Below, in pieces: positions 1,112 through 51,724 of a stretch of DNA of 64,000 nt. This DNA comes from a virus: IMG/VR virus record IMGVR_UViG_3300031746_000001. One strand, written 5' to 3'. The position numbers were made by a program, and so were the translations under genes. Within the stretch, counting starts at the first letter, position 1, and the number at the start of each line of letters is the position of its first letter. Below the pieces are notes generated by a model. It saw only the letters and a list, made by a program, of their open reading frames with translations. It was not told where the DNA came from and did no database searches.

Positions 1112-4100
1112 TTAGAGATATTCAACCAAAATCGTTCCATTCCAGTTCTCATTACGCTTGTCAGAAAATGAATAAGTGGTCGAAAAGACCGATTGCACGG
1201 AACCATTCTTGTGAACTTCAAGAACGGTATCCGACATCCCGACATAATTGATATAACAAGATATTTCATCCCCCTCAACAAAGTAGACGGGAGCGACATT
1301 CTTTATCGCTGTCGTTTCCCCGGTAGTAGACCCCCTGAACTGGCATCCGATAATCCTACCCGGAGAAAGCATCTGAACTGAATACTGATTTCCCACTTCA
1401 GTTCCGGCAGAGAAGTATCTACTTGACACACTCGCCGCAGTTCCAAGAGATAAGTGGTCTATGTTCTTTAGACCGTGTGCTCCAACAACCCCAATCCAAT
1501 CAAAGCTGATTCCTACGACAGTATCGCCCGAGAACACATGAACAGGCAACCAGACATTCGCTGGAATATGAGTCGTATGCGAAGCAACCAACTGACCATT
1601 GACATATAGACGACAGACATTTGGGTCCCATTGAATTTCAATCAGATTCCAAGTTCTGGCCGGGATAGCAACGGCTGTCTGTGTTACCGTCCCGTCGTAA
1701 GTTTCAAAGTTTCCGTCGTTATACCGGACATAATAGGATCCGCCGGAATCCCAAAAACCAACAGCGTTTCTGAACACACCAGACCTATCATAATCATCCT
1801 TAACGAACATAGACAATCTACCATACAGCCATGTTCTCTTCGTATACATCTCGCCATAAGAACCTCCGGCGTTCAGAATACTTATCATACTGGACGCAAC
1901 AGAATAGGTTGCACTTGCACCAACCTTAGTCCAGACATTCGTATCAAGGGCATTACCATCAAAATGGTCGATAAAACCCGGAAATCCTTCATAACTAATT
2001 ACCGGAGTTTCTATCGGAGCAATTTCAGAGAACTCAATGTCTGGATGTAGTCTTGTAGCAATATTATCAAGCAACACACCATAATACCCACCCATCGCAG
2101 TAGCATAGGCGGCAGTCGTTCCCCTCCAATAAAATTTCCCGTCACAATAAACATCGAACACATTAACTTTACTTCCGAGACTATTATACAAATAAACTTC
2201 AAGAGTATGCCATTCCCCTGTAGTCAATGTGACTGTAAAGACGCCATCTGTCAAACTACCATAACTTCCGGCATTATCATATCCTACCGTTAGATTAGCT
2301 CCCGACCCTGTGTAATACCAGAATAATCCATGAGCGGTAGCATGATTAAGAGCATCAAACCCAAAACATATCCCGTAGTTATCCGTAGAAGCATTCGGCT
2401 TGAACTTCATCCGAATACGAAGTCCACCGGATGCATTTGCATTGAGAGGAGCCTGACAAAGATAGAATCTTTCACCGGCTGTTCTCGCTACAGGAGCATA
2501 CCATCCGGCAGTATCACTTACCAGATACTCCGCATTTGTGTAGTTTCTATACAAAGCAGGAGAAGGATAACCACTATATCCCGACGCCCCACTGGCACCA
2601 GAGGCCCCTGAGGCGCCTGAAGCACCAGAAAGTCCAGATGCCCCCGTGAACCCACTGAATCCGGAGTACCCTGATAGGCCACTTGCCCCGCTAGCTCCAC
2701 TGGCGCCTGAAGCTCCTCCTGCTCCGGACAGCCCGCTGAAGCCGGATCGTCCGCTGTATCCTGAGTACCCCGACTGACCACTAGCGCCTGAAGCTCCTCC
2801 TGCTCCGGACAGCCCGGAGGCACCCGTGAATCCCGAGAAGCCAGAATATCCAGAGAGTCCGGAAGCTCCACTTGCTCCCGAAAGTCCGGATGCGCCAGTA
2901 GCCCCGGTAAATCCAGAGAAGCCGGAGTAACCTGAAAGACCAGACGCCCCGCTGGCGCCACTCGCTCCGCTGGCTCCCGAAAGCCCTGTAAATCCCGAGA
3001 ACCCGGAATATCCACTTAGACCTGAAGCACCAGACGCACCGCTCGCGCCGGAAGCCCCGCTGAGTCCTGTGAACCCACTGAAACCCGAGTAGCCGCTTAG
3101 TCCGGATGCACCACTTGCGCCTGAAAGTCCCGAAGCCCCTGAAGCTCCGGACAGGCCACTGGCTCCGGTGAAGCCGGAGAAACCCGAGTAACCGGAGAGG
3201 CCAGATGCCCCAGACGCTCCACTAGCCCCACTCGCTCCTGACAAGCCCGTGAACCCGCTGAAGCCGGAGTAACCCGATTGGCCACTAGCTCCGCTCGCCC
3301 CACTAGCCCCGCTGAGACCTGATGCCCCAGTAAATCCCGAAAAGCCGCTATAACCTGACAGTCCACTTGCCCCGGACGCGCCGGAAAGTCCGCTGGCCCC
3401 ACTGGCTCCCGTAAATCCGCTGAAACCTGAGTAGCCACTTTGTCCGGAGGCTCCCGACGCTCCGCTGGCACCGGAAAGACCGGAAGCTCCGCTGGCACCG
3501 GAAAACCCGCTGAGACCGCTATACCCAGACTGACCGGATGCTCCGCTCGCACCACTGGCTCCGCTAAGACCCGAGGCTCCGGACAGCCCTGTGAAGCCGG
3601 AAAATCCCGAGTAGCCGGAAAGTCCAGACGCCCCACTGGCACCGCTGAGCCCAGAGGCTCCCGAAGCTCCGGTGAAACCAGAGAATCCAGAGTACCCGCT
3701 CTGACCGCTGGCTCCACTCGCTCCCGAAGCCCCACTGAGTCCGGAAGCACCAGTGAAGCCAGAAAATCCGGAATATCCGGATTGTCCGCTGGCCCCGCTT
3801 GCTCCCGATGCCCCACTAAGCCCAGAGGCGCCGGTAAAACCACTGAACCCGGAGTACCCGCTTAATCCGCTGGCTCCCGATGCTCCTGAGAGTCCCGATG
3901 CTCCCGATGCGCCTGAGGCGCCAGAGAGTCCAGAAAAGCCAGAGAGTCCGCTATAGCCTGATTGTCCAACAGCCCCGGACGCTCCGCTCGCGCCGGACGC
4001 TCCCGAGAGTCCGGTAAAGCCGCTGAAGCCCGAGTAACCGGATTGGCCGCTGGCGCCGGATGCTCCCGAGGCTCCTGAGAGGCCACTAGCCCCAGTGAAT

Positions 4101-7100
4101 CCCGAAAAGCCTGAGTATCCACTTTGACCGGAAGCTCCGGAAGCACCGGAGGCGCCGGAAAGTCCCGAAGCCCCCGTAAATCCACTGAATCCGCTATACC
4201 CGCTCTGTCCGCTAGCTCCGGAAGCACCACTGGCACCAGAGGCTCCTGAAAGTCCGGAAGCTCCACTAAGCCCTGTGAAGCCGCTGAATCCGGAATAACC
4301 CGATAGACCAGAGGCCCCAGAAGCTCCGCTGGCACCACTAGCTCCGGATGCCCCAGTGAACCCACTGAACCCGGAGTAACCACTGAGGCCGCTGGCACCT
4401 AAAGCTCCACTTGCTCCACTTGCCCCGCTAAGTCCGCTAAACCCGCTGAAGCCGGAGTAGCCGCTTTGACCAGACGCCCCGCTGGCGCCAGAAGTTCCGC
4501 TAAGACCGGAAGCCCCGGTAAATCCCGAGAATCCGGAATACCCGCTGAGCCCGCTGGCTCCACTAAGGCCGCTGGCACCGGAAGCTCCTGAAGCCCCGAC
4601 AGCTCCCGAGAATCCGGAGAGCCCGGAATAACCAGACTGTCCCGAGGCGCCGGAAGTTCCGCTAAGCCCCGACGCTCCCGAAGCTCCGGTAAAGCCCGAG
4701 AAGCCAGAATATCCCGACTGCCCACTCGCTCCGCTGGCGCCGGACGCTCCACTGAGACCACTTTGTCCCGTGAAGCCAGAGAATCCTGAATAACCACTCT
4801 GTCCGCTGGCCCCACTGGCTCCGGAGGCGCCACTCGTTCCAGATAACCCCGAAAATCCGCTGTAACCACTTTGTCCGGAAGCTCCACTTGCTCCGGACGC
4901 ACCAGACGCTCCAACCGCCCCGCTGAATCCGCTAAGACCGCTGTAGCCTGAGAGTCCAGAGGCACCCGAAGATCCACTCGCACCTGAGGCTCCGGACGCT
5001 CCGGATGCTCCGGTGAAACCAGAGAATCCAGAGTACCCGCTCTGACCGCTGGCTCCAGATGCTCCACTCGCACCAGAAAGACCTGATTGCCCGATCGCAC
5101 CGCTGAACCCACTAAATCCTGAATAACCAGACGCGCCTGAAAGTCCCACCGCTCCAGAAAGACCACTGATACCTGAGTACCCACTTTGTCCACTCTCTCC
5201 CGAGGCCCCCGATGCTCCTGAAGTTCCGCTGAGTCCCGATGCTCCGGTGAATCCGGAGAATCCGGAGTAGCCCGATAGTCCCGATGCTCCGGATGCGCCG
5301 GAGGCCCCTGAGGCGCCTGAAGCACCAGTGAAACCAGAAAACCCGCTGTAGCCACTTTGTCCAGATGCCCCAGACGCGCCTGAAGCACCCGAAGCGCCAG
5401 AAAGACCTGTAAAGCCCGAGAACCCGGAATAACCGGACTGTCCGGACGCCCCGCTCGCTCCCGATAGACCAGACGCACCGCTTAGTCCACTGGCCCCGGA
5501 CAAACCCGTGAAGCCTGAAAAACCAGAATATCCGGACTGCCCTGAAGCACCAGACGCACCGCTCGCGCCTGACGCTCCGGATAGGCCGGAAAATCCTGAG
5601 AAGCCCGAATAACCCGACTGACCGCTGGCACCCGAAGCTCCACTGGCTCCCGAAAGACCCGAGGCTCCCGAAGCCCCGGATTGTCCCGTGAACCCACTGA
5701 AACCAGAATAACCGGACTGACCGGATGATCCTACGAAGGACTCTCCGGAAAACCCGCTAAGACCTGAGTAACCAGACTGGCCGGATGCGCCGGAAGCCCC
5801 GCTGGCTCCTGAAGATCCACTGGCACCTGTGAATCCGGAAAATCCGCTATAACCGGATTGACCGCTAGCTCCCGAGGTTCCCGAGGCGCCGGACGCTCCC
5901 GAGGCTCCACTCAGCCCGGAGAATCCGCTGAACCCTGAATATCCTGATTGACCGCTTGCCCCGCTTGCTCCGGAAGCTCCTCCGGCGCCGGAGGCTCCCG
6001 TGAAACCTGAGAAACCGCTGTAGCCGGATGCTCCCGATGTTCCCGACGCACCTGACGCGCCAGAAAGTCCAGAAAGTCCCGAGTAGCCCGACTGGCCAGA
6101 AGCACCCGAAAGACCACTAGCTCCGGATGCCCCTTCTGCTCCGGATTGTCCGCTGAATCCGGAGAAACCAGAGTAACCAGAAGCACCTGAAGTTCCAGAT
6201 GCTCCTGAGGCTCCTGAAGCTCCGCTAGCACCCGAGAGCCCGGTGAATCCAGAGAACCCAGAATACCCAGACTGACCGCTGGCCCCAGATGCACCAGATG
6301 CTCCTGAAGTCCCAGATAGTCCACTGAGACCTGAGAGACCGCTGTAGCCTGATTGTCCCGATGCACCCGAAGTTCCACTTGCACCTGACGCCCCGGATTC
6401 TCCGCTGAACCCGCTGAATCCGGAATACCCCGACTGTCCTGATTGGCCTGATGCACCACTCGCTCCACTCTGCCCTGATGCTCCTGTGAACCCGGAAAAC
6501 CCGCTGTAACCCGATTGTCCCGAGGCTCCGCTGGTCCCGGAGGCACCAGACGCCCCGGACTCCCCCGTGAACCCCGAGAACCCCGAGTATCCCGACTGGC
6601 CGGAGGCTCCACTGGCACCCGATGCTCCGGATAGGCCGGAAGCCCCAGTAAAGCCGGAAAAGCCGGAATACCCGCTCTGCCCACTCGCGCCTGACGTTCC
6701 TGACCCCCCAGAAGCCCCAGAAAGGCCACTCTGGCCTGAGAACCCGCTGGCTCCCGAGTAACCGGACTCCCCTGACGTCCCGGATGCACCTGAGGCCCCT
6801 GAGGCGCCTGACAGGCCGGAGGCCCCGGACTCCCCCGAGAATCCTGAGAACCCGCTGTAACCGCTGGCCCCCGATACCCCCGTAGCCTCCCCACTGAACC
6901 CCGAGAATCCCGAGTAACCCGACGCTCCACTGGGCCCCGACCCTCCCGATTCTCCGCTGTAACCAGAAAGGCCGGAATAACCGGACGCTCCGGTCCCTCC
7001 CGCCCCACTGAAGGTGATCGTCTGGCCGTCCTGGGTAACGTCGACACCGCTATACCCCTGAAAGAGAACATTCCCGGTTGCGGGAGGAGGCGCAATAGGA

Positions 7101-7315
7101 GAAACAAGCCCGATCGAGTGGACCCCCTCGTGGACGTGATCCCTCCGGCTGACCTGTCTCTCATCTCCGGAATAGCCGGACTGACCGACAGGCTCCGGGA
7201 GTCCCCGCCCGTAGATCTCGTTATTCAGGTGCCAGCTAAATACGGAAGACGGAAGAGATTTCGATATGCCATCCGGGCTCTTCCGTTCTCCGCGAATGTC
7301 TCGTGGATCAGCCAT
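1112..7315 (-). CDS. Giant Gly-X-Ser repeat (collagen-like) fibre protein with C-terminal beta-sandwich/lectin-like domains
   Basis: 2067 aa: about 100-aa N-terminus (SRRDHVH motif), about 1480 aa of Gly-every-third-residue repeat, and about 480-aa C-terminus with two ConA/LamG-like segments (WHTLEVY...FDVYCDGK; DHFDGNALDTNVW...WNLIEIQW...LYVNGQLVASH). Confidence 0.8.
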   Translation of the reverse strand: MADPRDIRGERKSPDGISKSLPSSVFSWHLNNEIYGRGLPEPVGQSGYSGDERQVSRRDHVHEGVHSIGLVSPIAPPPATGNVLFQGYSGVDVTQDGQTITFSGAGGTGASGYSGLSGYSGESGGSGPSGASGYSGFSGFSGEATGVSGASGYSGFSGFSGESGASGLSGASGASGASGTSGESGYSGASGFSGQSGLSGASGGSGTSGASGQSGYSGFSGFTGASGLSGASGASGASGQSGYSGFSGFTGESGASGASGTSGASGQSGYSGFSGFTGASGQSGASGASGQSGQSGYSGFSGFSGESGASGASGTSGASGQSGYSGLSGLSGLSGTSGASGASGASGQSGYSGFSGFTGLSGASGASGASGASGTSGASGYSGFSGFSGQSGAEGASGASGLSGASGQSGYSGLSGLSGASGASGTSGASGYSGFSGFTGASGAGGASGASGASGQSGYSGFSGFSGLSGASGASGASGTSGASGQSGYSGFSGFTGASGSSGASGASGASGQSGYSGLSGFSGESFVGSSGQSGYSGFSGFTGQSGASGASGLSGASGASGASGQSGYSGFSGFSGLSGASGASGASGASGQSGYSGFSGFTGLSGASGLSGASGLSGASGASGQSGYSGFSGFTGLSGASGASGASGASGQSGYSGFSGFTGASGASGASGASGASGLSGYSGFSGFTGASGLSGTSGASGASGESGQSGYSGISGLSGAVGLSGASGYSGFSGFSGAIGQSGLSGASGASGASGQSGYSGFSGFTGASGASGASGASGSSGASGLSGYSGLSGFSGAVGASGASGASGASGQSGYSGFSGLSGTSGASGASGASGQSGYSGFSGFTGQSGLSGASGASGASGQSGYSGFSGFTGASGASGLSGTSGASGQSGYSGLSGFSGAVGASGASGASGLSGASGLSGYSGFSGFTGASGLSGTSGASGASGQSGYSGFSGFSGLSGASGASGALGASGLSGYSGFSGFTGASGASGASGASGASGLSGYSGFSGFTGLSGASGLSGASGASGASGASGQSGYSGFSGFTGASGLSGASGASGASGQSGYSGFSGFTGASGLSGASGASGASGQSGYSGFSGFTGLSGASGASGASGAVGQSGYSGLSGFSGLSGASGASGASGLSGASGASGLSGYSGFSGFTGASGLSGASGASGASGQSGYSGFSGFTGASGLSGASGASGASGQSGYSGFSGFTGASGASGLSGASGASGLSGYSGFSGFTGLSGASGLSGASGASGASGQSGYSGLSGFSGASGASGLSGASGASGASGQSGYSGFSGFTGASGASGLSGASGASGLSGYSGFSGFTGASGLSGASGASGASGQSGYSGFSGFTGLSGASGASGASGASGLSGYSGFSGFTGASGLSGASGASGLSGASGASGLSGYSGFSGFTGLSGASGASGASGASGLSGYSGFSGFTGLSGASGASGASGASGLSGYSGFSGFTGATGASGLSGASGASGLSGYSGFSGFTGASGLSGAGGASGASGQSGYSGYSGRSGFSGLSGAGGASGASGASGASGLSGYSGFSGFTGASGLSGASGASGASGASGASGYSGYPSPALYRNYTNAEYLVSDTAGWYAPVARTAGERFYLCQAPLNANASGGLRIRMKFKPNASTDNYGICFGFDALNHATAHGLFWYYTGSGANLTVGYDNAGSYGSLTDGVFTVTLTTGEWHTLEVYLYNSLGSKVNVFDVYCDGKFYWRGTTAAYATAMGGYYGVLLDNIATRLHPDIEFSEIAPIETPVISYEGFPGFIDHFDGNALDTNVWTKVGASATYSVASSMISILNAGGSYGEMYTKRTWLYGRLSMFVKDDYDRSGVFRNAVGFWDSGGSYYVRYNDGNFETYDGTVTQTAVAIPARTWNLIEIQWDPNVCRLYVNGQLVASHTTHIPANVWLPVHVFSGDTVVGISFDWIGVVGAHGLKNIDHLSLGTAASVSSRYFSAGTEVGNQYSVQMLSPGRIIGCQFRGSTTGETTAIKNVAPVYFVEGDEISCYINYVGMSDTVLEVHKNGSVQSVFSTTYSFSDKRNENWNGTILVEYL
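2570..7006 (-). repeat. Coding 9-bp-period repeat, about 490 Gly-X-Ser/Thr triplets, with a higher-order unit (SGA/L/Q)n-SGY-SGF-SGF-TG
   Basis: Visible in the translation. One register break noticed (GESFVG, near 5730). Synonymous codons are strongly shuffled, with occasional exact DNA duplicates (e.g. 2703-2735 vs 2784-2816). Confidence 0.95.
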
Positions 7316-21965: not shown

Positions 21966-22249
21966 AATGCCCCGAACTTCTCAAAGGACGGGATCCGCAG
22001 AAGATCTCCTGGTTGCAAATCGGTCACCGGAAGCTGAATCCTGTTTAGCGATGCGATCACCCACCAGCCGTGGACGGTCCCGTAGGCCCGGCTTGCGATA
22101 TAGTCGAGCCGGTCTCCTCCGGTGAAGGCCAGGAAGAGATCGTCCGTATTCCCGGCCACGTCGACGAAGTCTGCATCCCAGAAGGCCACGCCCCCCTCCG
22201 TCATGTAGGTCGCCTTGTTAAGCCTGGATCCGAAGGGCATGGACTTCAT
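21962..22249 (-). CDS. LysM-like baseplate wedge protein (tail X / gp53-like)
   Basis: GDRLDYIASRAYG...WWVIASLN...DLQPGDLLRIP. Confidence 0.85.
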   Translation of the reverse strand: MKSMPFGSRLNKATYMTEGGVAFWDADFVDVAGNTDDLFLAFTGGDRLDYIASRAYGTVHGWWVIASLNRIQLPVTDLQPGDLLRIPSFEKFGAL

Positions 22250-23571
22250 GCTTCCTCCACGCTCCGCAGTAGATCGTCATCGAAATAGCCGAGCTTCTTG
22301 AGCCGCTCACCGGCGTAGGTCACCCGCATGCCGATATCGTTCCGGTAGTGGCCATCGTTCACCTTGACGTAATCGAAAGCATCGAGCGCATTTCGCCGGG
22401 CCACCGGAAGCCTCTCATCTACCCCGTTCGAGCAGAGAATCCGCCCCATGCCGGGAAGGACTTTGTAGATCCCGTCCTCGAGGACGAGTCCGAAGGGTTG
22501 TATGTCACACCCGTTCTCCTCGGCCTCCGGAATCCCGTTCACGACCTCCCAGTCGTATTGCTCGAAGCACTCATCGAAGGGATAAGACCCGATGTTGAGA
22601 GTCACCCCGACCGCCCAACCCCTCATGATCTGGGGGCTGATATCTTTCTCCCCGAAGGCGCACTTCATGAGCAGATCTCCGACCCCGTCCTTATGGAGGG
22701 CCATCTGGATGAGGAGCAGGGGATACCCGAACCGTGCCGTGAACTCTATCCCGAAAATCCCGTCCTCGTTCACGATCGCATTGATATCAAAGTAGCCCCG
22801 GAAGCGATCGCCCTCAGCTAGAATCCCCTCGAGCTTTGCCAGGGTCTCGTCGAAGAACTTACCGCCCATCACGTACCGGAGGCTGGTCCCCATCTCCCCC
22901 GTGAGGGCCCCCTGCCCTCCGGCCACGAGCCTCTTCTCCTCGAAGTTTAGGCAGAGAGGTTGGATGAACTTCTTGCCGTCGAAGAATCCCCCGATCGCCA
23001 TCTCCACACCTTCGATCTTCTCCTCGAGGATAAGCTCGGCCTTGTCCCCGGCCTTCTCCTTCACTTTTTCAAGGTAATCAAGCGTGTCCTGCGGTGCCCT
23101 CCCAACATACGTCCCCTTAGCCATCATCTCGGAAACCTTGACGCAGTAGCCCACTTTGCCGTTCTGGACGGTCTGGATGGCCTTTTTGACGTCCTGGAAG
23201 GCTTCTGAGTGGGGTGTCTGGATCCCTGCGTCCCGCATTACCTGCTTCCCGACCTTCCGGTCGAGTTCTAGCCGGGCGACCCCCGCCCCGGCCCCAAAGA
23301 CCTTGATCCCGTCTTCCCGGAGGCCGTCCACGTCCTGACCGAAGCCGACGTCCGTGGAAACCACGCAGTCTACCGACTTGGCGATGTCGAGAAAACCTTC
23401 CACCTTCTTGACCCCCCACTCTTCGAAGAGGCCCTTTCCGTAGGTCGTCTCGTAAATCTCCGGGTGAGCCCGGGCCCAGTTCACCCAGTAGAAGACCTTG
23501 TGGCCTTCATCCCGAAGCCTCCTGGCGAGCGCCATCGCCAGGGCCGTGTCCATGATCAGAAAGCTAGCCAT
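22246..23571 (-). CDS. PurD-like ATP-grasp ligase, paralogue A (441 aa)
   Basis: ARLELDRKVGK.VM..AGI.TP, LEEKIEGVE, NFEEKRL.AGGQGALTGEMG, FRGYFDIN, IEFTARFGYP, YRNDIG. Lacks the canonical PurD GxGGREHA and EFN.RFGDPE signatures. Confidence 0.8.
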   Translation of the reverse strand: MASFLIMDTALAMALARRLRDEGHKVFYWVNWARAHPEIYETTYGKGLFEEWGVKKVEGFLDIAKSVDCVVSTDVGFGQDVDGLREDGIKVFGAGAGVARLELDRKVGKQVMRDAGIQTPHSEAFQDVKKAIQTVQNGKVGYCVKVSEMMAKGTYVGRAPQDTLDYLEKVKEKAGDKAELILEEKIEGVEMAIGGFFDGKKFIQPLCLNFEEKRLVAGGQGALTGEMGTSLRYVMGGKFFDETLAKLEGILAEGDRFRGYFDINAIVNEDGIFGIEFTARFGYPLLLIQMALHKDGVGDLLMKCAFGEKDISPQIMRGWAVGVTLNIGSYPFDECFEQYDWEVVNGIPEAEENGCDIQPFGLVLEDGIYKVLPGMGRILCSNGVDERLPVARRNALDAFDYVKVNDGHYRNDIGMRVTYAGERLKKLGYFDDDLLRSVEEA

Positions 23572-30244: not shown

Positions 30245-32635
30245 TTAGCGGAAGCTCTTCGCCCAGTCCTTGTCGACGTAACCCCACTCGAGAAGCTTCT
30301 GCCCCTCGGCGATCGTGCGGGCTCCGATATCGTAGCGGTAGAAGCCGTCCGGGATCCATATCTTCCGGGCGCTGTCGTTCATGTCCTGCATGGCCTGGGA
30401 GATCGTCTGCCCCTGTCCCGTGATGCAGACCGTCCGGCCATAGTCCGGGAGGGCGATATACTTACCATCCTCCTTGACCACCCCGAAGAAGCCGACCCGG
30501 GCCCCTTCCTCAATCGCCTTGTCTATGCCGTAGACGATCGACCAGTCACCGCCCCGGGCCTTCATGACCTCCGTGTAGGGGTAGCCGTTCACGCACCAGC
30601 ACGTCCCGATCGCCCAGCGGTGCTTCAAGATATCCCACTTCGGCCTGTACCGTGGATCCAGAAGGGTCCCGTAGGCGATCCCCGAGAGCACCTCCCCGAA
30701 GCGTTTGTGGAGCGTCATCTGAATCATGTAGACCGGATAGCCGAATCTGCAATTGCCAGAGAAAAACGCCTTCCCGTTTCTTCTCACCAGCATTGCGTGA
30801 TAATCCTCCACCTCTACATCCCAAACCTTACCTGTATAGTGCTCTCGACCCATCACGCGCTTGTCCACAGAATAATCAAGTTTCTTCTCTCGAACGCTCA
30901 GAGAATAACCATCACTCCTTCGAGTATAGCCGCCAATGCCTACCGTTCCCTTAACCTTGCAAGGCTTGATATTTGCCACTCGACCCGTCTTAAATAGCAC
31001 CTCCTGGAAATCATCCGCCAGAAGTTTTGAAGTCGTATAGAGACTCAGTTGGCCATTCCTCTTATGCCAGCATCCATCGCCAAGGGCAAAGCCATGAACC
31101 AGGGCTTCTAAAAGCCGAGGTGAAAAGTTCTTAAAAGCTAAGGGGATCGTCTTAAATGAAGCTGTCTTATCTAACCCGAGGGATTCGAGAAAACCACATA
31201 GTTGCCGAGAATTGATTTGATAATGACCGCCATTCTTCTGGACCGAAAAATCAAATCCAAAGTTCTTCAATATCTCCTCGATCTCGCCCCTCCTCTTGGA
31301 ACCCCAGCTTTGGGATATGGTCAGGTGATATTTCTTCCCGTTCTTTCTCCGTCCCCCAAAACATCCCTCCGACAGATACAATCCCAAAAACTGCATAAAG
31401 ACATGGGTATCAAGCTTCCGGGCTGGATGAACGAGGTATATCTTTTTCTTGGACTTTCCAAGACAATGTTCTTCAATATACTCGGGAATTTCAATATACC
31501 TTTTGTCAGTCCCAAACCACGACCCGCTCCGGACTATAGACCAATTCCACTCCGGCATCTCCCCAGCCTTGACAATCTTATTCTTCCCGCTCTTGGTAAT
31601 CAATAAATTATGGTCAGGAGTGACCAGAATATCCAAAGCCTTGTTCCCGATCCTTACCATCTCGCCATCATAGTCCCGCACCCGCTTACCCACAATTTTC
31701 TTCCACTCTATCTCCCGGCTTTGGGGATTGATAGCTAAGGCCATATCTCCAACCACAACCTCCGTATACTTCAGCCAGCCCCGTTGGGTCAGGATTTCGG
31801 TCTTCTCGTCGAAACAGGTGAACTCAATGACGTGCGTCCCGCTCTCGTTGGCGATGCAGGAGACCTCCACGTAGCCCCGGTAGCCGACCATCCGCAGGAA
31901 GGGCTCAATCTTCTGTAGGGTCTCCGCAAACGCCTTCCCTCCGGTGTCATCGTAATACATTGCCGTTCCGATCTCCGAGTTCATCGGCCCGAGATCCCCG
32001 GGGAAGGTCTTGTTATACTCAAAAGAGATCAGCTTGGGCCCCAGGAACTCCTGCCCGTTGAAAAACCCTCCGCAGGCGATCTCCACGCCCTCAATGAACT
32101 TCTCGAGCCGGATCGGAGCGGAGGAGGACAGGCCGGACAGAAACTTGATCATGGCCTCCGGAGATTTGGTCACGAAGGTCTTTTTGTTGCGGGACTCGTC
32201 CGACTTGTAGGCGTAGCCGGAAGGGTTCTGTTTGATATGCTGAACGGCGTCCTCTTTGGTGTTATGAACCGTGACCTCCGGGACCTTCACCCCGTAACCT
32301 GCCAGGGTCTCTCTGCCGAACTCCCGGTCCGTCTCGAGCCTCTCCCCGAGGAACGGGGCCCCGTAGACCAGAGTCCCCTTCTTCCGGAAGTAGTCGAGAT
32401 GCTTCCCGTAGCCGATATCCGTCGCCACGACGTAGTCGACGTAGCTTAGGATGGAATCATACATGTCGATCCGCTTGACCCCCCACTCTTCAAAGAGGCC
32501 TTTGCCGTAAAGGGCTTCGGACTCGTCCGGGTAGTTCCTGATCTTGTTGAGGTAATAGTAGACCTCATCTCCCTCCTGCGCCAGTCTCCTGGCTAGATCA
32601 AGGGCAAGACCAGTGTCGAGAATCAAGACCCTCAT
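30245..32635 (-). CDS. PurD-like ATP-grasp ligase, paralogue B, containing an intein (441 aa after splicing)
   Basis: Colinear with 22246..23571 (both have YGKGLFEEWGVK, IEGVE, GGFF.G, RGY, EFT.RFGYP, YR.DIG.R); 355-aa insertion between IEFT and CRFGYP. Confidence 0.85.
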   Translation of the reverse strand: MRVLILDTGLALDLARRLAQEGDEVYYYLNKIRNYPDESEALYGKGLFEEWGVKRIDMYDSILSYVDYVVATDIGYGKHLDYFRKKGTLVYGAPFLGERLETDREFGRETLAGYGVKVPEVTVHNTKEDAVQHIKQNPSGYAYKSDESRNKKTFVTKSPEAMIKFLSGLSSSAPIRLEKFIEGVEIACGGFFNGQEFLGPKLISFEYNKTFPGDLGPMNSEIGTAMYYDDTGGKAFAETLQKIEPFLRMVGYRGYVEVSCIANESGTHVIEFTCFDEKTEILTQRGWLKYTEVVVGDMALAINPQSREIEWKKIVGKRVRDYDGEMVRIGNKALDILVTPDHNLLITKSGKNKIVKAGEMPEWNWSIVRSGSWFGTDKRYIEIPEYIEEHCLGKSKKKIYLVHPARKLDTHVFMQFLGLYLSEGCFGGRRKNGKKYHLTISQSWGSKRRGEIEEILKNFGFDFSVQKNGGHYQINSRQLCGFLESLGLDKTASFKTIPLAFKNFSPRLLEALVHGFALGDGCWHKRNGQLSLYTTSKLLADDFQEVLFKTGRVANIKPCKVKGTVGIGGYTRRSDGYSLSVREKKLDYSVDKRVMGREHYTGKVWDVEVEDYHAMLVRRNGKAFFSGNCRFGYPVYMIQMTLHKRFGEVLSGIAYGTLLDPRYRPKWDILKHRWAIGTCWCVNGYPYTEVMKARGGDWSIVYGIDKAIEEGARVGFFGVVKEDGKYIALPDYGRTVCITGQGQTISQAMQDMNDSARKIWIPDGFYRYDIGARTIAEGQKLLEWGYVDKDWAKSFR
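30752..31816 (-). mobile_element. Intein with LAGLIDADG homing endonuclease
   Basis: Begins CFDEKTEILTQRGW; block B VTPDHNL; LAGLIDADG-like FLGLYLSEG and HGFALGDG; ends VWDVEV...FFSGN followed by +1 Cys. DNA is more AT-rich than its flanks. Confidence 0.93.
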
Positions 32636-37164: not shown

Positions 37165-37569
37165 TCATACCACCAGCGTCTTGTCCCCGTTCTCGCTAGA
37201 AACGATCCTACGAACGTCTTCCAGAAACGCATTCGGTTTGAACGCCGGAGTCCCCTTCGTGATGAACTTCCGAATGCCCATTAAAAGGCTTCGCTTCTCG
37301 GGCTTGAGATCGGCCTCCTTTAAGGCCGTCAGAACAATCACCGGCACGTTTCTCATCTCATCGTCCCGCTTCATCTGCTCGAACACTGTGAACCCGTCCA
37401 TATCCGGCATCATAAGGTCCAAAACTACGAGCTGTGGTTTGATCTCCCTGATCTTCTGCAATCCCGACACCCCTCCATCCGCCAGAGCTACAGTATACCC
37501 GTTATGCTCGAGGAGGTCTTTCAGCATCTCCCTAACGAACATGTTGTCGTCCACGATTAGGATACTCAT
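37165..37569 (-). CDS. Single-domain response regulator (CheY-like receiver)
   Basis: ILIVDD, LVVLDLMMPDMDGF (phosphoacceptor Asp), VPVIVLTA and FITK are all present; no output domain. Confidence 0.92.
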   Translation of the reverse strand: MSILIVDDNMFVREMLKDLLEHNGYTVALADGGVSGLQKIREIKPQLVVLDLMMPDMDGFTVFEQMKRDDEMRNVPVIVLTALKEADLKPEKRSLLMGIRKFITKGTPAFKPNAFLEDVRRIVSSENGDKTLVV

Positions 37570-39727: not shown

Positions 39728-39769
39728 CTATTGGGCCTTCGTCGTCTTCTGCATGAACTGGAACACGAC
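39728..39769 (-). pseudogene. Displaced duplicate of the tail sheath 3' end (VVFQFMQKTTKAQ-stop)
   Basis: Encodes the same 13 residues plus stop as 40563..40604, but 12 of 14 codons differ synonymously. Confidence 0.9.
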
Positions 39770-40560
39770 TACGCGGCCCACTTGTAGCCGTAAAAAGGTT
39801 GAATCTCATTTGGACAACAACCAATGTAAGACAGGAAACTATTCGTCGAAGAATCTGAAATTCCTATCACATTGTTTGACTTCTGCCGAGAAGCTTTAAA
39901 TCCTAAATTATGGATTTTCCTAACGAGCAACTCGACATCATCAACAGAAAAACCCTGCGTAGACAATAGTATTTTGCGACGGCGTCCTCCTGGACGGTGA
40001 AGCAAGTATCCGTCTCCGATATACCACTGTCTTACAACCAGAGGTTTTAAGTCGACATCCAAAGGAACGATCTTTCTTCCGTTGTCGTAAAACATTTTGT
40101 GCAATGAGAGTAGCTCGGGATACCTCAGAGATGCATAGTGATGAACTACACTTATGGCTCCACTTTTCCAGACCGTTCTGGTCTTTTGTATTTTCCCAGA
40201 TCGATACAGTCCGAAGCCTCTGAAGGTCTTGTCCAACCATTGGATATACCCCAGGTGCTTAGAACCACTCTGAAATCTTGCCGATCTCTCATTATCGGAG
40301 TGAAGATGCCCATCTCCCAGAAGCTCTCCGACCAAAAATTGAATCGCTTCTTCCGAGAGGCTAACGTGTTTCTCTCTTGTAAGATAGATAGCGTCCGCAC
40401 ACGACCTTCTTGGGATGCCAAACTTCACCATCCACATTTGAATGGCGTTGCTGGTCACCCCAAGATCGACCGCGATTTGATGGAGAGACTTCCTGCCCGA
40501 TACGTATTGGCTCCGAAGCCAATCTTCAGTCATCCATTTATAGAGCGGACGCCGATCCAT
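39769..40560 (-). mobile_element. Free-standing LAGLIDADG homing endonuclease with N-terminal HTH
   Basis: SLHQIAVDLGVTSNAIQMWM (HTH), FLVGELLGDGHL and RQWYIGDGY motifs, GRKIVP, LSTQGF; AT-rich relative to the sheath gene. Confidence 0.9.
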
Positions 40561-49939: not shown

Positions 49940-51085
49940 TCAGTCCTCCTTGTGGTGCGGTTTGTCGCCCCGGCTTTTCATCCAGTAGGAGTTATGCGAG
50001 AAAACCCCTGCGGATATGGCGAACGTATGAATTCCCTTAACAGCGACATCATACATCGGAATGATGGTATCGAGAAAATCGATCTTAACTATAAAGTGGT
50101 TCTGAGCCTCTCGAGCTTCCCGGGCCCTTCGCTTTCCTTCGCCGACCTTTTTCCCATGATCCGAACCATAGTTTCTCCGAAGATTTGCCTGCCTAATCTT
50201 CTCTATCGCATCCGCAGACTGAGAAGTTCCGAACGGACGACCGCCAAGCAAACCACTCCTGTAAGACTGATCCCTGAGAAGTCCCGACCGACGTTCTCGC
50301 TCTTCGGGAGACATTTCGGCCCATTGCTTCAACGTAGTCTCTTTGGACTTTTTCGTATGCAACCTTCTGAATTCCGGGTCCGATCTCCACTTTTTATCCC
50401 ACGCTAACCGCATCGCCTGAACCTTGTCCTTTCCATGATGCTTATTATGGAAATCCCGCAACATCCAAACTAAGTTTTCAGGGCGGTTATCTCGAGGGTC
50501 TTCATTGAGATGGTGCCCGACATGCTCGGCGGAGGGACAGCCTAAACCCATCTCCCGCATTACAGCCCAATGCGTAAGGCCATAGCACCCGAGGCCGGGA
50601 TGGTAAACCATCTCATGCCCCACAATTCCACGAGCCATTCTTGATTTTGACACACTGCTTGTCGTCCTGAATGGCATCAGAGAATCATCTACGTTCAGAG
50701 CCTTCGTTTCGACGAAAGACCCATCACGTTTGACCCAGCGGTGCTCCGGAGAACAGGTTAGAATCTCACCGTTATCAAGCGCAATTTCCACGGCAGGACG
50801 CACCCCGACATACTTTACCCGGGCAAGACCGGGAACGACTATCCCTGTCGGGTCAACGGAGTAAAGCCAGAACTCGGCATTAGCCTCTGCAAGTGCATGC
50901 AGTGACCTGATTTTTCCGTCCAAACATGGAACCTCCGTATCACCTCCTAGACACAAAGCGAAGGGGTTGTCGATGTCCTTGTGCTTCTTCATCGCCCGGA
51001 CGGTCCCGCCCCAGCCCGGGGGAGACACGTTCACGAGCTTGAAGCTCTGCGAGAGATCGACGACGGCGGTCAATAATTCCTTCAT
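49940..51085 (-). CDS. Leader-bearing 60-aa protein interrupted by an intein
   Basis: N-extein MKELLTAVVDL...VSPPGWGGTVRAMKKHKDIDNPFAL (44 aa); C-extein SYWMKSRGDKPHHKED (16 aa). Confidence 0.85.
   Translation of the reverse strand: MKELLTAVVDLSQSFKLVNVSPPGWGGTVRAMKKHKDIDNPFALCLGGDTEVPCLDGKIRSLHALAEANAEFWLYSVDPTGIVVPGLARVKYVGVRPAVEIALDNGEILTCSPEHRWVKRDGSFVETKALNVDDSLMPFRTTSSVSKSRMARGIVGHEMVYHPGLGCYGLTHWAVMREMGLGCPSAEHVGHHLNEDPRDNRPENLVWMLRDFHNKHHGKDKVQAMRLAWDKKWRSDPEFRRLHTKKSKETTLKQWAEMSPEERERRSGLLRDQSYRSGLLGGRPFGTSQSADAIEKIRQANLRRNYGSDHGKKVGEGKRRAREAREAQNHFIVKIDFLDTIIPMYDVAVKGIHTFAISAGVFSHNSYWMKSRGDKPHHKED
49991..50953 (-). mobile_element. Intein with HNH endonuclease
   Basis: Begins CLGGDTEVPCLDG; block B LDNGEILTCSPEHRW; HNH motif HHLNEDPRDNRPENL......HNKHH; ends MYDVAV.GIHTFAISAGVFSHN followed by +1 Ser. 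Confidence 0.93.
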
Positions 51086-51094
51086 GATATCCTC

Positions 51095-51724
51095 CTACGC
51101 GGCCTTCAGCCCAACCTGCCGGGCGTATTCTTTCCAGGTATCCCCGTCCACCAGAATGTCGGCCACATCGTTGTTGGCAATCATGTCCCCGTACTCGTCC
51201 TGCAGGGTCCCGAGCATCTCTTCCACGATCCCCTGGATGAACTCCGTCAGGTCGGCCCCGCCGAGGAACGGAGGGACGCAGGAGTAGCCCCGGGTCGAGA
51301 AGGCGATGCTCACAGGAGAACGACGATCGTTCAGTGCTTTCTGGACCTCTGGATCGTTCGGGTCTGCCCCGGCCTCCTTGAGAAAGAGCCTGACGTCCTT
51401 GACCACTGCGTTCTTGAGCACGAGGCGCTCGGGCCTGAAGTAGTAGTCCGGGCTGTCTCCCTCGGGATCCTTCCAGCTCATCTTCGGGCTCACCCAGAGG
51501 ACATCCTCACATTGGATCCCGTAATCCGACAGGCGGCTCCGGAAGTGCGCCTTCAGGTTGCGATCGAAGTCCCCGTAGACCCGATCTCTGCGGAAGAGCT
51601 CCATCATCATGAACTGCGTGGACAGCTCGAGGTCCTGAAAATCCTTCTCCCGGTTGGGATCGAGATAGAGCCCCAGGAAGATCCCGCTGGTTAAGGTATT
51701 CACAGCTTCGAGCAAGTCCCTCAC
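51095..51724 (-). CDS. Leader-bearing protein
   Basis: MRDLLEAVNTLTSG; GTGA overlap. Confidence 0.7.
   Translation of the reverse strand: MRDLLEAVNTLTSGIFLGLYLDPNREKDFQDLELSTQFMMMELFRRDRVYGDFDRNLKAHFRSRLSDYGIQCEDVLWVSPKMSWKDPEGDSPDYYFRPERLVLKNAVVKDVRLFLKEAGADPNDPEVQKALNDRRSPVSIAFSTRGYSCVPPFLGGADLTEFIQGIVEEMLGTLQDEYGDMIANNDVADILVDGDTWKEYARQVGLKAA

Follow-up and report, generated by a model that had tools for sequence, protein, structure and literature searches.

Can a phage protein of 60 residues be host to an intein more than five times its own size, and, if so, what kind of protein is it? The question is raised by an open reading frame (ORF) of 381 amino acids (aa) on the minus strand of IMG/VR virus record IMGVR_UViG_3300031746_000001, of which 64,000 nucleotides (nt), referred to below as the window, were analysed. 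An earlier sequence-only reading of this DNA had described the ORF as a 321-aa HNH intein sitting between a 44-aa and a 16-aa extein. Our analysis of the precursor, its relatives and its intein-free alleles indicates that this is very probably a canonical class-1 intein with an in-frame HNH homing endonuclease, which homed recently into the gene of a 60-residue phage protein. The parts of the gene are listed below, each followed by the means by which it was assigned.

49940..51085, minus strand: precursor ORF of 381 aa, made up of N-extein, HNH intein and C-extein, plus the stop codon (ORF reading, Pfam)
51091..51096, minus strand: AGGAGG ribosome-binding site, 6-11 nt 5' of the ATG (upstream 20-mer read directly)
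51029..51085, minus strand: leader of the MxxLLxAV type, residues 1-19 (MKELLTAVVDLSQSFKLVN), a putative prohead-targeting propeptide (leader motif scan)
50954..51028, minus strand: residues 20-44 (VSPPGWGGTVRAMKKHKDIDNPFAL), the N-terminal part of a conserved domain of ~40 aa, ending at the invariant Ala-Leu before the intein (family alignment)
49991..50953, minus strand: intein, residues 45-365, 321 aa (CLGGDTEV...GVFSHN) (Pfam, alignment, model)
50435..50569, minus strand: HNH nuclease core within the intein, residues 173-217 (Pfam, PHROG, alignment)
49943..49990, minus strand: C-extein, residues 366-381 (SYWMKSRGDKPHHKED), the second half of the conserved domain, with the +1 Ser as the predicted splice nucleophile (ORF reading)

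The intein and its intein-free alleles

The division of the ORF that had been read from the letters proved exact. The 381-aa protein splits into 44, 321 and 16 residues, so that the intein is 5.35 times as long as the 60-aa protein it interrupts, in agreement with the earlier estimate of more than five times. The full N-extein (residues 1-44) reads MKELLTAVVDLSQSFKLVNVSPPGWGGTVRAMKKHKDIDNPFAL and ends in NPFAL. Pfam, the invariant blocks of an alignment and a model of the Hint fold all agreed with this division. The Pfam family Intein_splicing (PF14890) matched residues 61-365 with an E value of 3.5e-9 (37.1 bits, cutoff 35.8), and HNH_3 (PF13392) matched residues 173-208 with an E value of 3.5e-6 (27.0 bits, cutoff 24.8); the precursor was also matched by four PHROG HNH families.

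A search of a collection of 5.8 billion proteins gave 3,558 candidates, five of which, including the window's own protein, were homologues of similar length. The window protein was aligned with four metagenomic intein proteins (P0164, P0165, P0166 and P0167), which are 27-43% identical to it over 72-96% of the query, giving a set of five related inteins. In block A, C45 comes right after NPFAL, and residues C45, L46, G48 and T50 of the CLxGDT motif are invariant in all five. Block B reads S112-P-E-H115, with P113 and H115 invariant throughout, and its first position is Ser in the window intein and P0164 and Thr in the other three. Block F (Y345-D346) and block G (H364-N365, followed by Ser or Cys) are invariant in 5/5, as are H191, H192, N200, N204, H213 and H217 of the HNH core.

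An AlphaFold model of the precursor had predicted local distance difference test (pLDDT) values of 75-88 in both Hint halves. When this model was compared with the PDB by Foldseek, 32 matches were obtained at E<=0.001, and among the matches listed all were inteins or intein-like Hint domains, for example Npu DnaE (4kl5, E 1.5e-6) and Ssp DnaB (1mi8, template-modelling score of 0.82 on the target). A phmmer search of the PDB found a DnaE intein as well (7qil, E 5.7e-4). The insertion point lies inside the second predicted helix of the host protein, right after the invariant A43-L44. Judged by its sequence, the 381-aa ORF carries a genuine class-1 HNH intein with all canonical splicing residues, far beyond what chance would produce.

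Intein-free homologues, on whose existence the sequence-only reading had staked the intein itself, were found both as a protein and as a gene in a related genome. A short-protein search with the N-extein alone matched two of four candidates. One of them (P0001) is exactly 60 aa long, is 98% identical to the N-extein and reads on as ...NPFAL-GWWMKNRGDKPHYKED without the insert; the other (P0002) is a 97-aa relative. The related genome is part of a 160-kb viral contig (L054) found by a scan of IMG/VR, in which 26 of the 30 tested window proteins were matched at 39-99% identity with the gene order kept. Here a 60-aa ORF without the insert (L054:10001-10183) lies between the 209-aa gene (MRDLLEAV...) and the MKKETRAV... 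genes. After the junction the empty alleles read GWWMKNRGDKPH(H/Y)KED, and the +1 residue of the C-extein, S366 in the window, is Gly in the intein-free alleles of this lineage. A colinear intein-free 60-aa allele exists in a syntenic sister genome.

The sister genome also has an extra gene of 94 aa (L054:10185-10469, MKKETRAVQLLSELCGE...) between the microprotein gene and the 146-aa gene, which is not in the window and which resembles a paralogue of the N-terminus of the next gene. Another locus, L118, was considered as a second intein-bearing locus on account of a match that reached query residue 106, and turned out to encode an intein-free protein of 411 aa.

In-frame HNH inteins, which Dalgaard et al. 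1997 were the first to note, are an established but uncommon kind, found mostly in phages, according to the part consulted of a preprint that cites that work (bioRxiv 10.1101/2025.01.02.630785). The same part of the preprint places the known phage HNH inteins in actinophage terminase, DNA polymerase, thymidylate synthase and minor capsid genes, and it bears out the earlier statement that intein nucleases are usually of the LAGLIDADG type and only rarely HNH. Like these inteins, the window intein combines a class-1 Hint domain with a same-frame HNH nuclease, is phage-borne and sporadic with intein-free alleles, and differs in composition from its host gene; unlike them, it sits in a 60-aa protein of an uncharacterised family and not in an enzyme or a large structural protein. 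Its distant sequence relatives include the inteins of Aphanizomenon phage CL131 dCTP deaminase, Bacillus phage SP-15 and Dickeya phage NrdA, and the GenBank phage matches cover only the intein part, from query residue 42-45 on. The mechanism is standard, and the host protein is new. In the parts of the literature covered by our survey, which was not exhaustive, no intein was found in a host of such small size, nor in any protein of the prohead core or the head interior, and we know of no smaller natural intein host.

Composition, junction and spread of the intein

The GC content at third codon positions (GC3) was 0.52 in the intein, while the exteins reached 0.87 and the values of seven neighbouring phage genes were 0.67-0.86. 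A free-standing homing endonuclease gene of the window (39769-40560) had a similarly low GC3 of 0.485. The composition and codon usage of the intein are foreign to the phage.

The DNA around the insertion point was compared between the window and the empty allele of the sister genome in an ungapped comparison anchored at the junction. Of the 23 nt from -6 to +17, 9 differed, whereas 14 did so among the other 195 nt, which make up the remainder of the gene and its 3' flank (Fisher p 1e-4). Three of these junction changes are on the left-hand side and are all synonymous; those on the right-hand side turn G-W...N into S-Y...S. Since the +1 Gly of the empty alleles cannot be a nucleophile, the Ser must have come with the intein, and its arrival would fit the co-conversion that is expected.

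Intein-plus contigs were also found in three other sediment metagenome runs (X2, X3 and X4), which share year and habitat, perhaps stem from one campaign and are not fully independent. Within 49991-50953 none of the three showed a single difference from the window, whereas their covered flanks differed by 15 (X2), 20 (X3) and 21 (X4) nt, and 14-24 differences would have been expected in the intein (p 7e-5 to 1e-7). The identical tract runs ~60-95 nt into both exteins in X3 and X4. Set against recent homing is the finding that no empty-site contig of the same strain was seen in runs X2-X5 and that no contig joined across the intein. The similarity of short contigs from X4 and X5 to the window is confined to the 33-36 nt before the insertion point, after which their sequence is unlike it; the one from X4, read by eye, continues as an intein-free family member of another phage. 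The invariant intein among diverged flanks suggests ongoing homing in a natural sediment phage population, and the intein is probably genuine, active and recently spread.

The host microdomain and its possible place in the phage head

The conserved unit of the host protein family is ~40 residues long and reads (V/K)(S/A)PPGWxGTVKAMKKHKDIDNPxAL-AWWMKNKGxKxH, and G24, G27, M32, I38, P41, A43, L44, K49 and H56 are invariant in 52 short members. A search with P0001 matched all 14 of its candidates, and in IMG/VR 332 of 363 pattern stretches were confirmed as belonging to the family. A profile search of 1.84 billion representatives found 1,539 proteins at E<=1e-3 and 1,041 at E<=1e-10, nearly all of them viral; the best 150 of the 1,539 were listed. 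A scan of 185,579 species genomes confirmed only 5 of its 16 pattern stretches, each of them in a metagenome-assembled genome. The domain occurs alone (56-60 aa), in two to four copies or within proteins of up to 1,069 aa. Pfam found no domain in 95 of 106 longer members and EF-hand, DUF5661, DUF6321, DUF7230, DUF3175 and similar domains in the other 11.

Pfam and PHROG searches gave no credible match for the 60-aa protein, the domain or 15 family members; AGS_C (0.0012) and Cas9 WED (0.0018), the best matches in two of the 15, were judged to be noise. The AlphaFold model of the microprotein consists of two helices (residues 26-34 and 41-50, pLDDT 87-89), and leader residues 3-12 form a low-confidence helix. 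Foldseek found nothing at E<=0.001 for this model in the PDB and a single match in BFVD, a 913-aa viral protein that contains the same domain. The ESM Atlas returned only viral clusters named 'hypothetical protein', with scores under 0.9.

Two of the related inteins also interrupt this domain. In P0164 (501 aa) the same site is occupied by an intein 43% identical to that of the window (...NPWAL, then CLTGET...VFSHN, then SWWLKNRG...) behind an N-terminal region that is longer than, and quite different from, that of the window host protein. In P0166 (562 aa) the insertion point of a related intein lies 19 residues further upstream (...VSPPGW, then CLSGDT...VFVHN, then SGTVKAMKKH...). The same type of HNH intein lies within gp25-like baseplate wedge proteins (PF04965) in P0165 and P0167. 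The inteins of P0164-P0167 share blocks A, B, F and G and the HNH module with the window intein; the exteins differ, and only P0164 shares its insertion point. A natural Ser is available at both insertion sites: NPxAL is followed by Ala 197 times, by Ser 26 times, by Gly three times and by Thr once, and PPGW is followed by Ser in 40 of 218 instances. By these alignments, the microdomain is an intein hot spot, invaded at two positions by related inteins.

The sequence-only reading had proposed that the interrupted motif is conserved and important. The 1,539 representatives, the insertion after an invariant Ala-Leu and the second intein site in P0166 all bear this out. Inteins are thought to persist where their imprecise loss is lethal, and the presence of two insertion sites 19 residues apart in a 40-aa module therefore suggests that the module is functionally critical. 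What is new about the locus is the host: it is 60 aa long, and the family to which it belongs is matched by neither Pfam nor PHROG and has two intein sites in one ~40-aa module.

The surroundings of the gene point to the phage head. The window is the structural module of an uncultured myophage with a T4-like capsid, all on the minus strand, and contains a portal fragment, an S77 prohead protease, a Gp23 capsid protein, ~19 small genes, a head-tail adaptor, sheath, tubes and baseplate. The microprotein gene sits between the Gp23-type capsid gene with the S77 protease and the head-tail adaptor: matches to PF07068 (E 1e-68) and PF03420 (E 1.3e-16) lie 7-10 kb away on the same strand, and the adaptor gene is 2 kb downstream. 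The start of the host protein, MKELLTAV, fits the motif M-x-x-[LI]-[LIM]-x-[ASTL]-[VILWT], which has 15 matches on the minus strand of the window and two on the plus strand. Twelve of the 15 are ATG gene starts between 44795 and 61536, three lie elsewhere, and two genes with a GTG start come in addition; among the gene starts are those of the capsid protein (MEQLLTAW) and of the protease (MEKLLLTT). T4 loads its core and internal proteins by way of N-terminal targeting peptides, and the T4-type S77 prohead protease cuts after Glu, removes targeting peptides and degrades gp67 and gp68, as described in the parts of two articles that were consulted (PMC9958956, PMC5694885). By analogy, the leader may be a targeting signal.

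In six T4-like loci (L014, L033, L036, L048, L052 and L063) the domain forms the C-terminus of a protein of 102-110 aa, and the gene order is sheath, tube, portal, domain-bearing protein, 133-aa protein, protease, scaffold and capsid. The place between portal and protease is what we take, from the T4 gene order, to be the position of gp67. Three of these genes, in each of which the domain follows V/I/M-x-E, are as follows.

L048:3789-4121: domain-bearing gene between portal and prohead protease
L033:9845-10153: domain-bearing gene between portal and prohead protease
L014:1004-1321: domain-bearing gene between portal and prohead protease

In their N-terminal part, the six proteins matched phrog_683 (E 1.9e-7) and phrog_1064, annotated 'prohead' (E 4e-4). 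Across the family, Glu directly precedes the domain in 179 of 189 distinct instances, and 157 of the 189 have hydrophobic-x-Glu, which looks like a prohead-protease site. The P3 residue of the T4 prohead-protease site is Leu or Ile. The predicted start of the mature product of ~40 aa proposed earlier, VSPPGW, coincides with the family-wide domain boundary; in this lineage Asn and not Glu precedes it. The host protein resembles T4 gp67 and gp68, and the internal proteins IPI-III with their capsid-targeting sequence of ~10 aa, in being small, in lying near portal, protease and capsid genes and in having an N-terminal leader of the targeting type (PMC9958956 and PMC5694885, in the parts consulted). 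It is unlike gp67 and gp68 in that its domain is conserved like a functional product, while fragments of the T4 core reportedly exit the head, and unlike the T4 core proteins in that the predicted cut residue in its lineage is Asn instead of Glu.

Because the leader is common to the capsid protein, the protease and about 12 genes, because the domain is fused to a protein at the gp67 position and because of the boundary motif, we infer with modest preference that the microprotein is a prohead-core or internal head component. Several observations weigh against such a role. The window, L054 and P0001 have Leu-Val-Asn before VSPPGW (window 51026-51037, minus strand), and trimming at this Asn is therefore unsupported by the known specificity of T4-type proteases. 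The 60-aa protein and its domain gave no PHROG or Pfam match that would link them to gp67, gp68 or internal proteins, and the 'prohead' PHROG match of the six T4-like proteins is weak and falls in a part that the window protein lacks. A tblastn search of 50,697 GenBank phage records with P0001, P0058 and the L048 microprotein found no match, to which the BLAST low-complexity filter may have contributed. Most family members lie outside head modules. A phrog_3041 or phrog_455 gene occurs within 5 kb of the domain-bearing gene in 33 of 80 IMG/VR loci; in the two of these that were annotated gene by gene (L022 and L051), the domain lies inside a 471- or 809-aa protein, in the neighbourhood of genes for primase, thymidylate synthase or ribonucleotide reductase, and endolysin. 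Seven large-phage loci also place the domain next to primase.

The same neighbours would suit a different assignment, in which the intein is read correctly and the host is a small basic module that binds nucleic acid or protein, serves replication, takeover or defence evasion, and lies in a head module by chance. The fusion of the domain to many unrelated partners (the EF-hand and DUF domains named above) and its basic two-helix fold without an informative structural neighbour also speak for this. Chance placement does not readily account for a leader that both the window and L054 genes share with the capsid protein, the protease and about 12 head-module genes, for the six T4-like loci that place the domain exactly between portal and protease, fused to a protein at the gp67 position, or for the hydrophobic-x-Glu before the domain, which suits a prohead-protease site. 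We therefore regard a role outside the head as a serious but less likely possibility than a role within it. A wider form of the head reading, offered tentatively, is that the ~40-aa module is an unrecognised and very widespread core component of uncultured tailed phages, a small basic peptide that the prohead protease would release from leaders or polyproteins at hydrophobic-x-Glu and kept in the head with the DNA, and whose conservation would have made it a homing hot spot.

Proposed mechanism, other elements of the window and meaning

In the mechanism that we propose, the 381-aa precursor would be translated, and Cys45 and Ser366 would carry out standard protein splicing to yield an intein-nuclease of ~37 kDa and a ligated 60-aa protein reading ...NPFAL-SYWMK.... 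The free nuclease would cut intein-less alleles of co-infecting relatives, and repair would copy the intein together with a short extein tract that includes the obligatory +1 Ser. The MxxLLxAV leader would target the microprotein to the prohead, where trimming would probably give a basic two-helix peptide of ~41 aa starting at VSPPGW.

Two other accounts of the precursor were weighed. It might be a domesticated Hint-HNH fusion that does not splice, in which case the whole 381-aa protein would be functional and the 'exteins' mere tails. The Ser at the start of block B in the window intein would fit a loss of splicing, as this position is Thr in most inteins. On the other side, every catalytic position is intact and invariant across the five related inteins, colinear 60-aa alleles without the insert occur, one of them in a syntenic genome, and the codon usage of the insert is foreign. 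The insert also breaks the most conserved motif of the host in the middle of a predicted helix, and the same intein family occupies the same site in a different host protein (P0164). We consider a non-splicing fusion very unlikely. The suggestion of the sequence-only reading that part of the precursor is deliberately left unspliced, so that the HNH nuclease enters the capsid by way of the leader and reaches the next cell along with the DNA, can draw on a leader type common to head-module proteins and on the sufficiency, in T4, of an N-terminal targeting sequence for loading foreign proteins into the head (PMC9958956, in the part consulted), but it found no support and is if anything still more improbable, as the sequence holds nothing that would slow splicing (the nucleophiles are canonical, as are the His of block B, the Asp of block F and the His-Asn), P0164 has the same intein type behind a different and much longer N-terminal region, and the related inteins in gp25-like proteins mark the nuclease as an ordinary homing element.

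The HNH intein is not the only candidate mobile element here, and the window holds three homing elements as predicted from its sequence. A second intein (30245-32635, minus strand) splits a 796-aa protein of the ATP-grasp type (GARS-like) with a LAGLIDADG-type insert. Its junctions read ...VIEFT, then CFDEKTEIL...FFSGN, then CRFGYP..., and it ends in Gly-Asn, not His-Asn; an uninterrupted 441-aa paralogue of the ATP-grasp protein is encoded at 22246-23571. The third is the free-standing LAGLIDADG_2 homing endonuclease gene at 39769-40560 (minus strand), which directly follows the sheath gene and whose product matches an HNH-family PHROG in its N-terminal part.

Three further genes of the minus strand were recorded. 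The 2,067-aa product of 1112-7315 has very strong collagen triple-helix repeats (E 2.9e-201), carries at its C-terminus a domain resembling 3-keto-disaccharide hydrolase and is probably a fibre. A protein with a response-regulator receiver domain (37165-37569, E 9.7e-24) is encoded among the tail genes, and a radical SAM/SPASM protein (118-921) at the low-coordinate end of the window.

The intein points to a blind spot in phage annotation, namely a domain with more than 1,500 metagenome representatives and no Pfam, PHROG or GenBank phage match. It also indicates that host size is no barrier to inteins, 44 and 16 residues of extein being sufficient, and, with an empty allele at hand for direct comparison, it provides a minimal extein context of natural origin. 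If the wider head reading is true, the microprotein would be the smallest natural intein host, and the intein would offer a handle for finding the function of the peptide.

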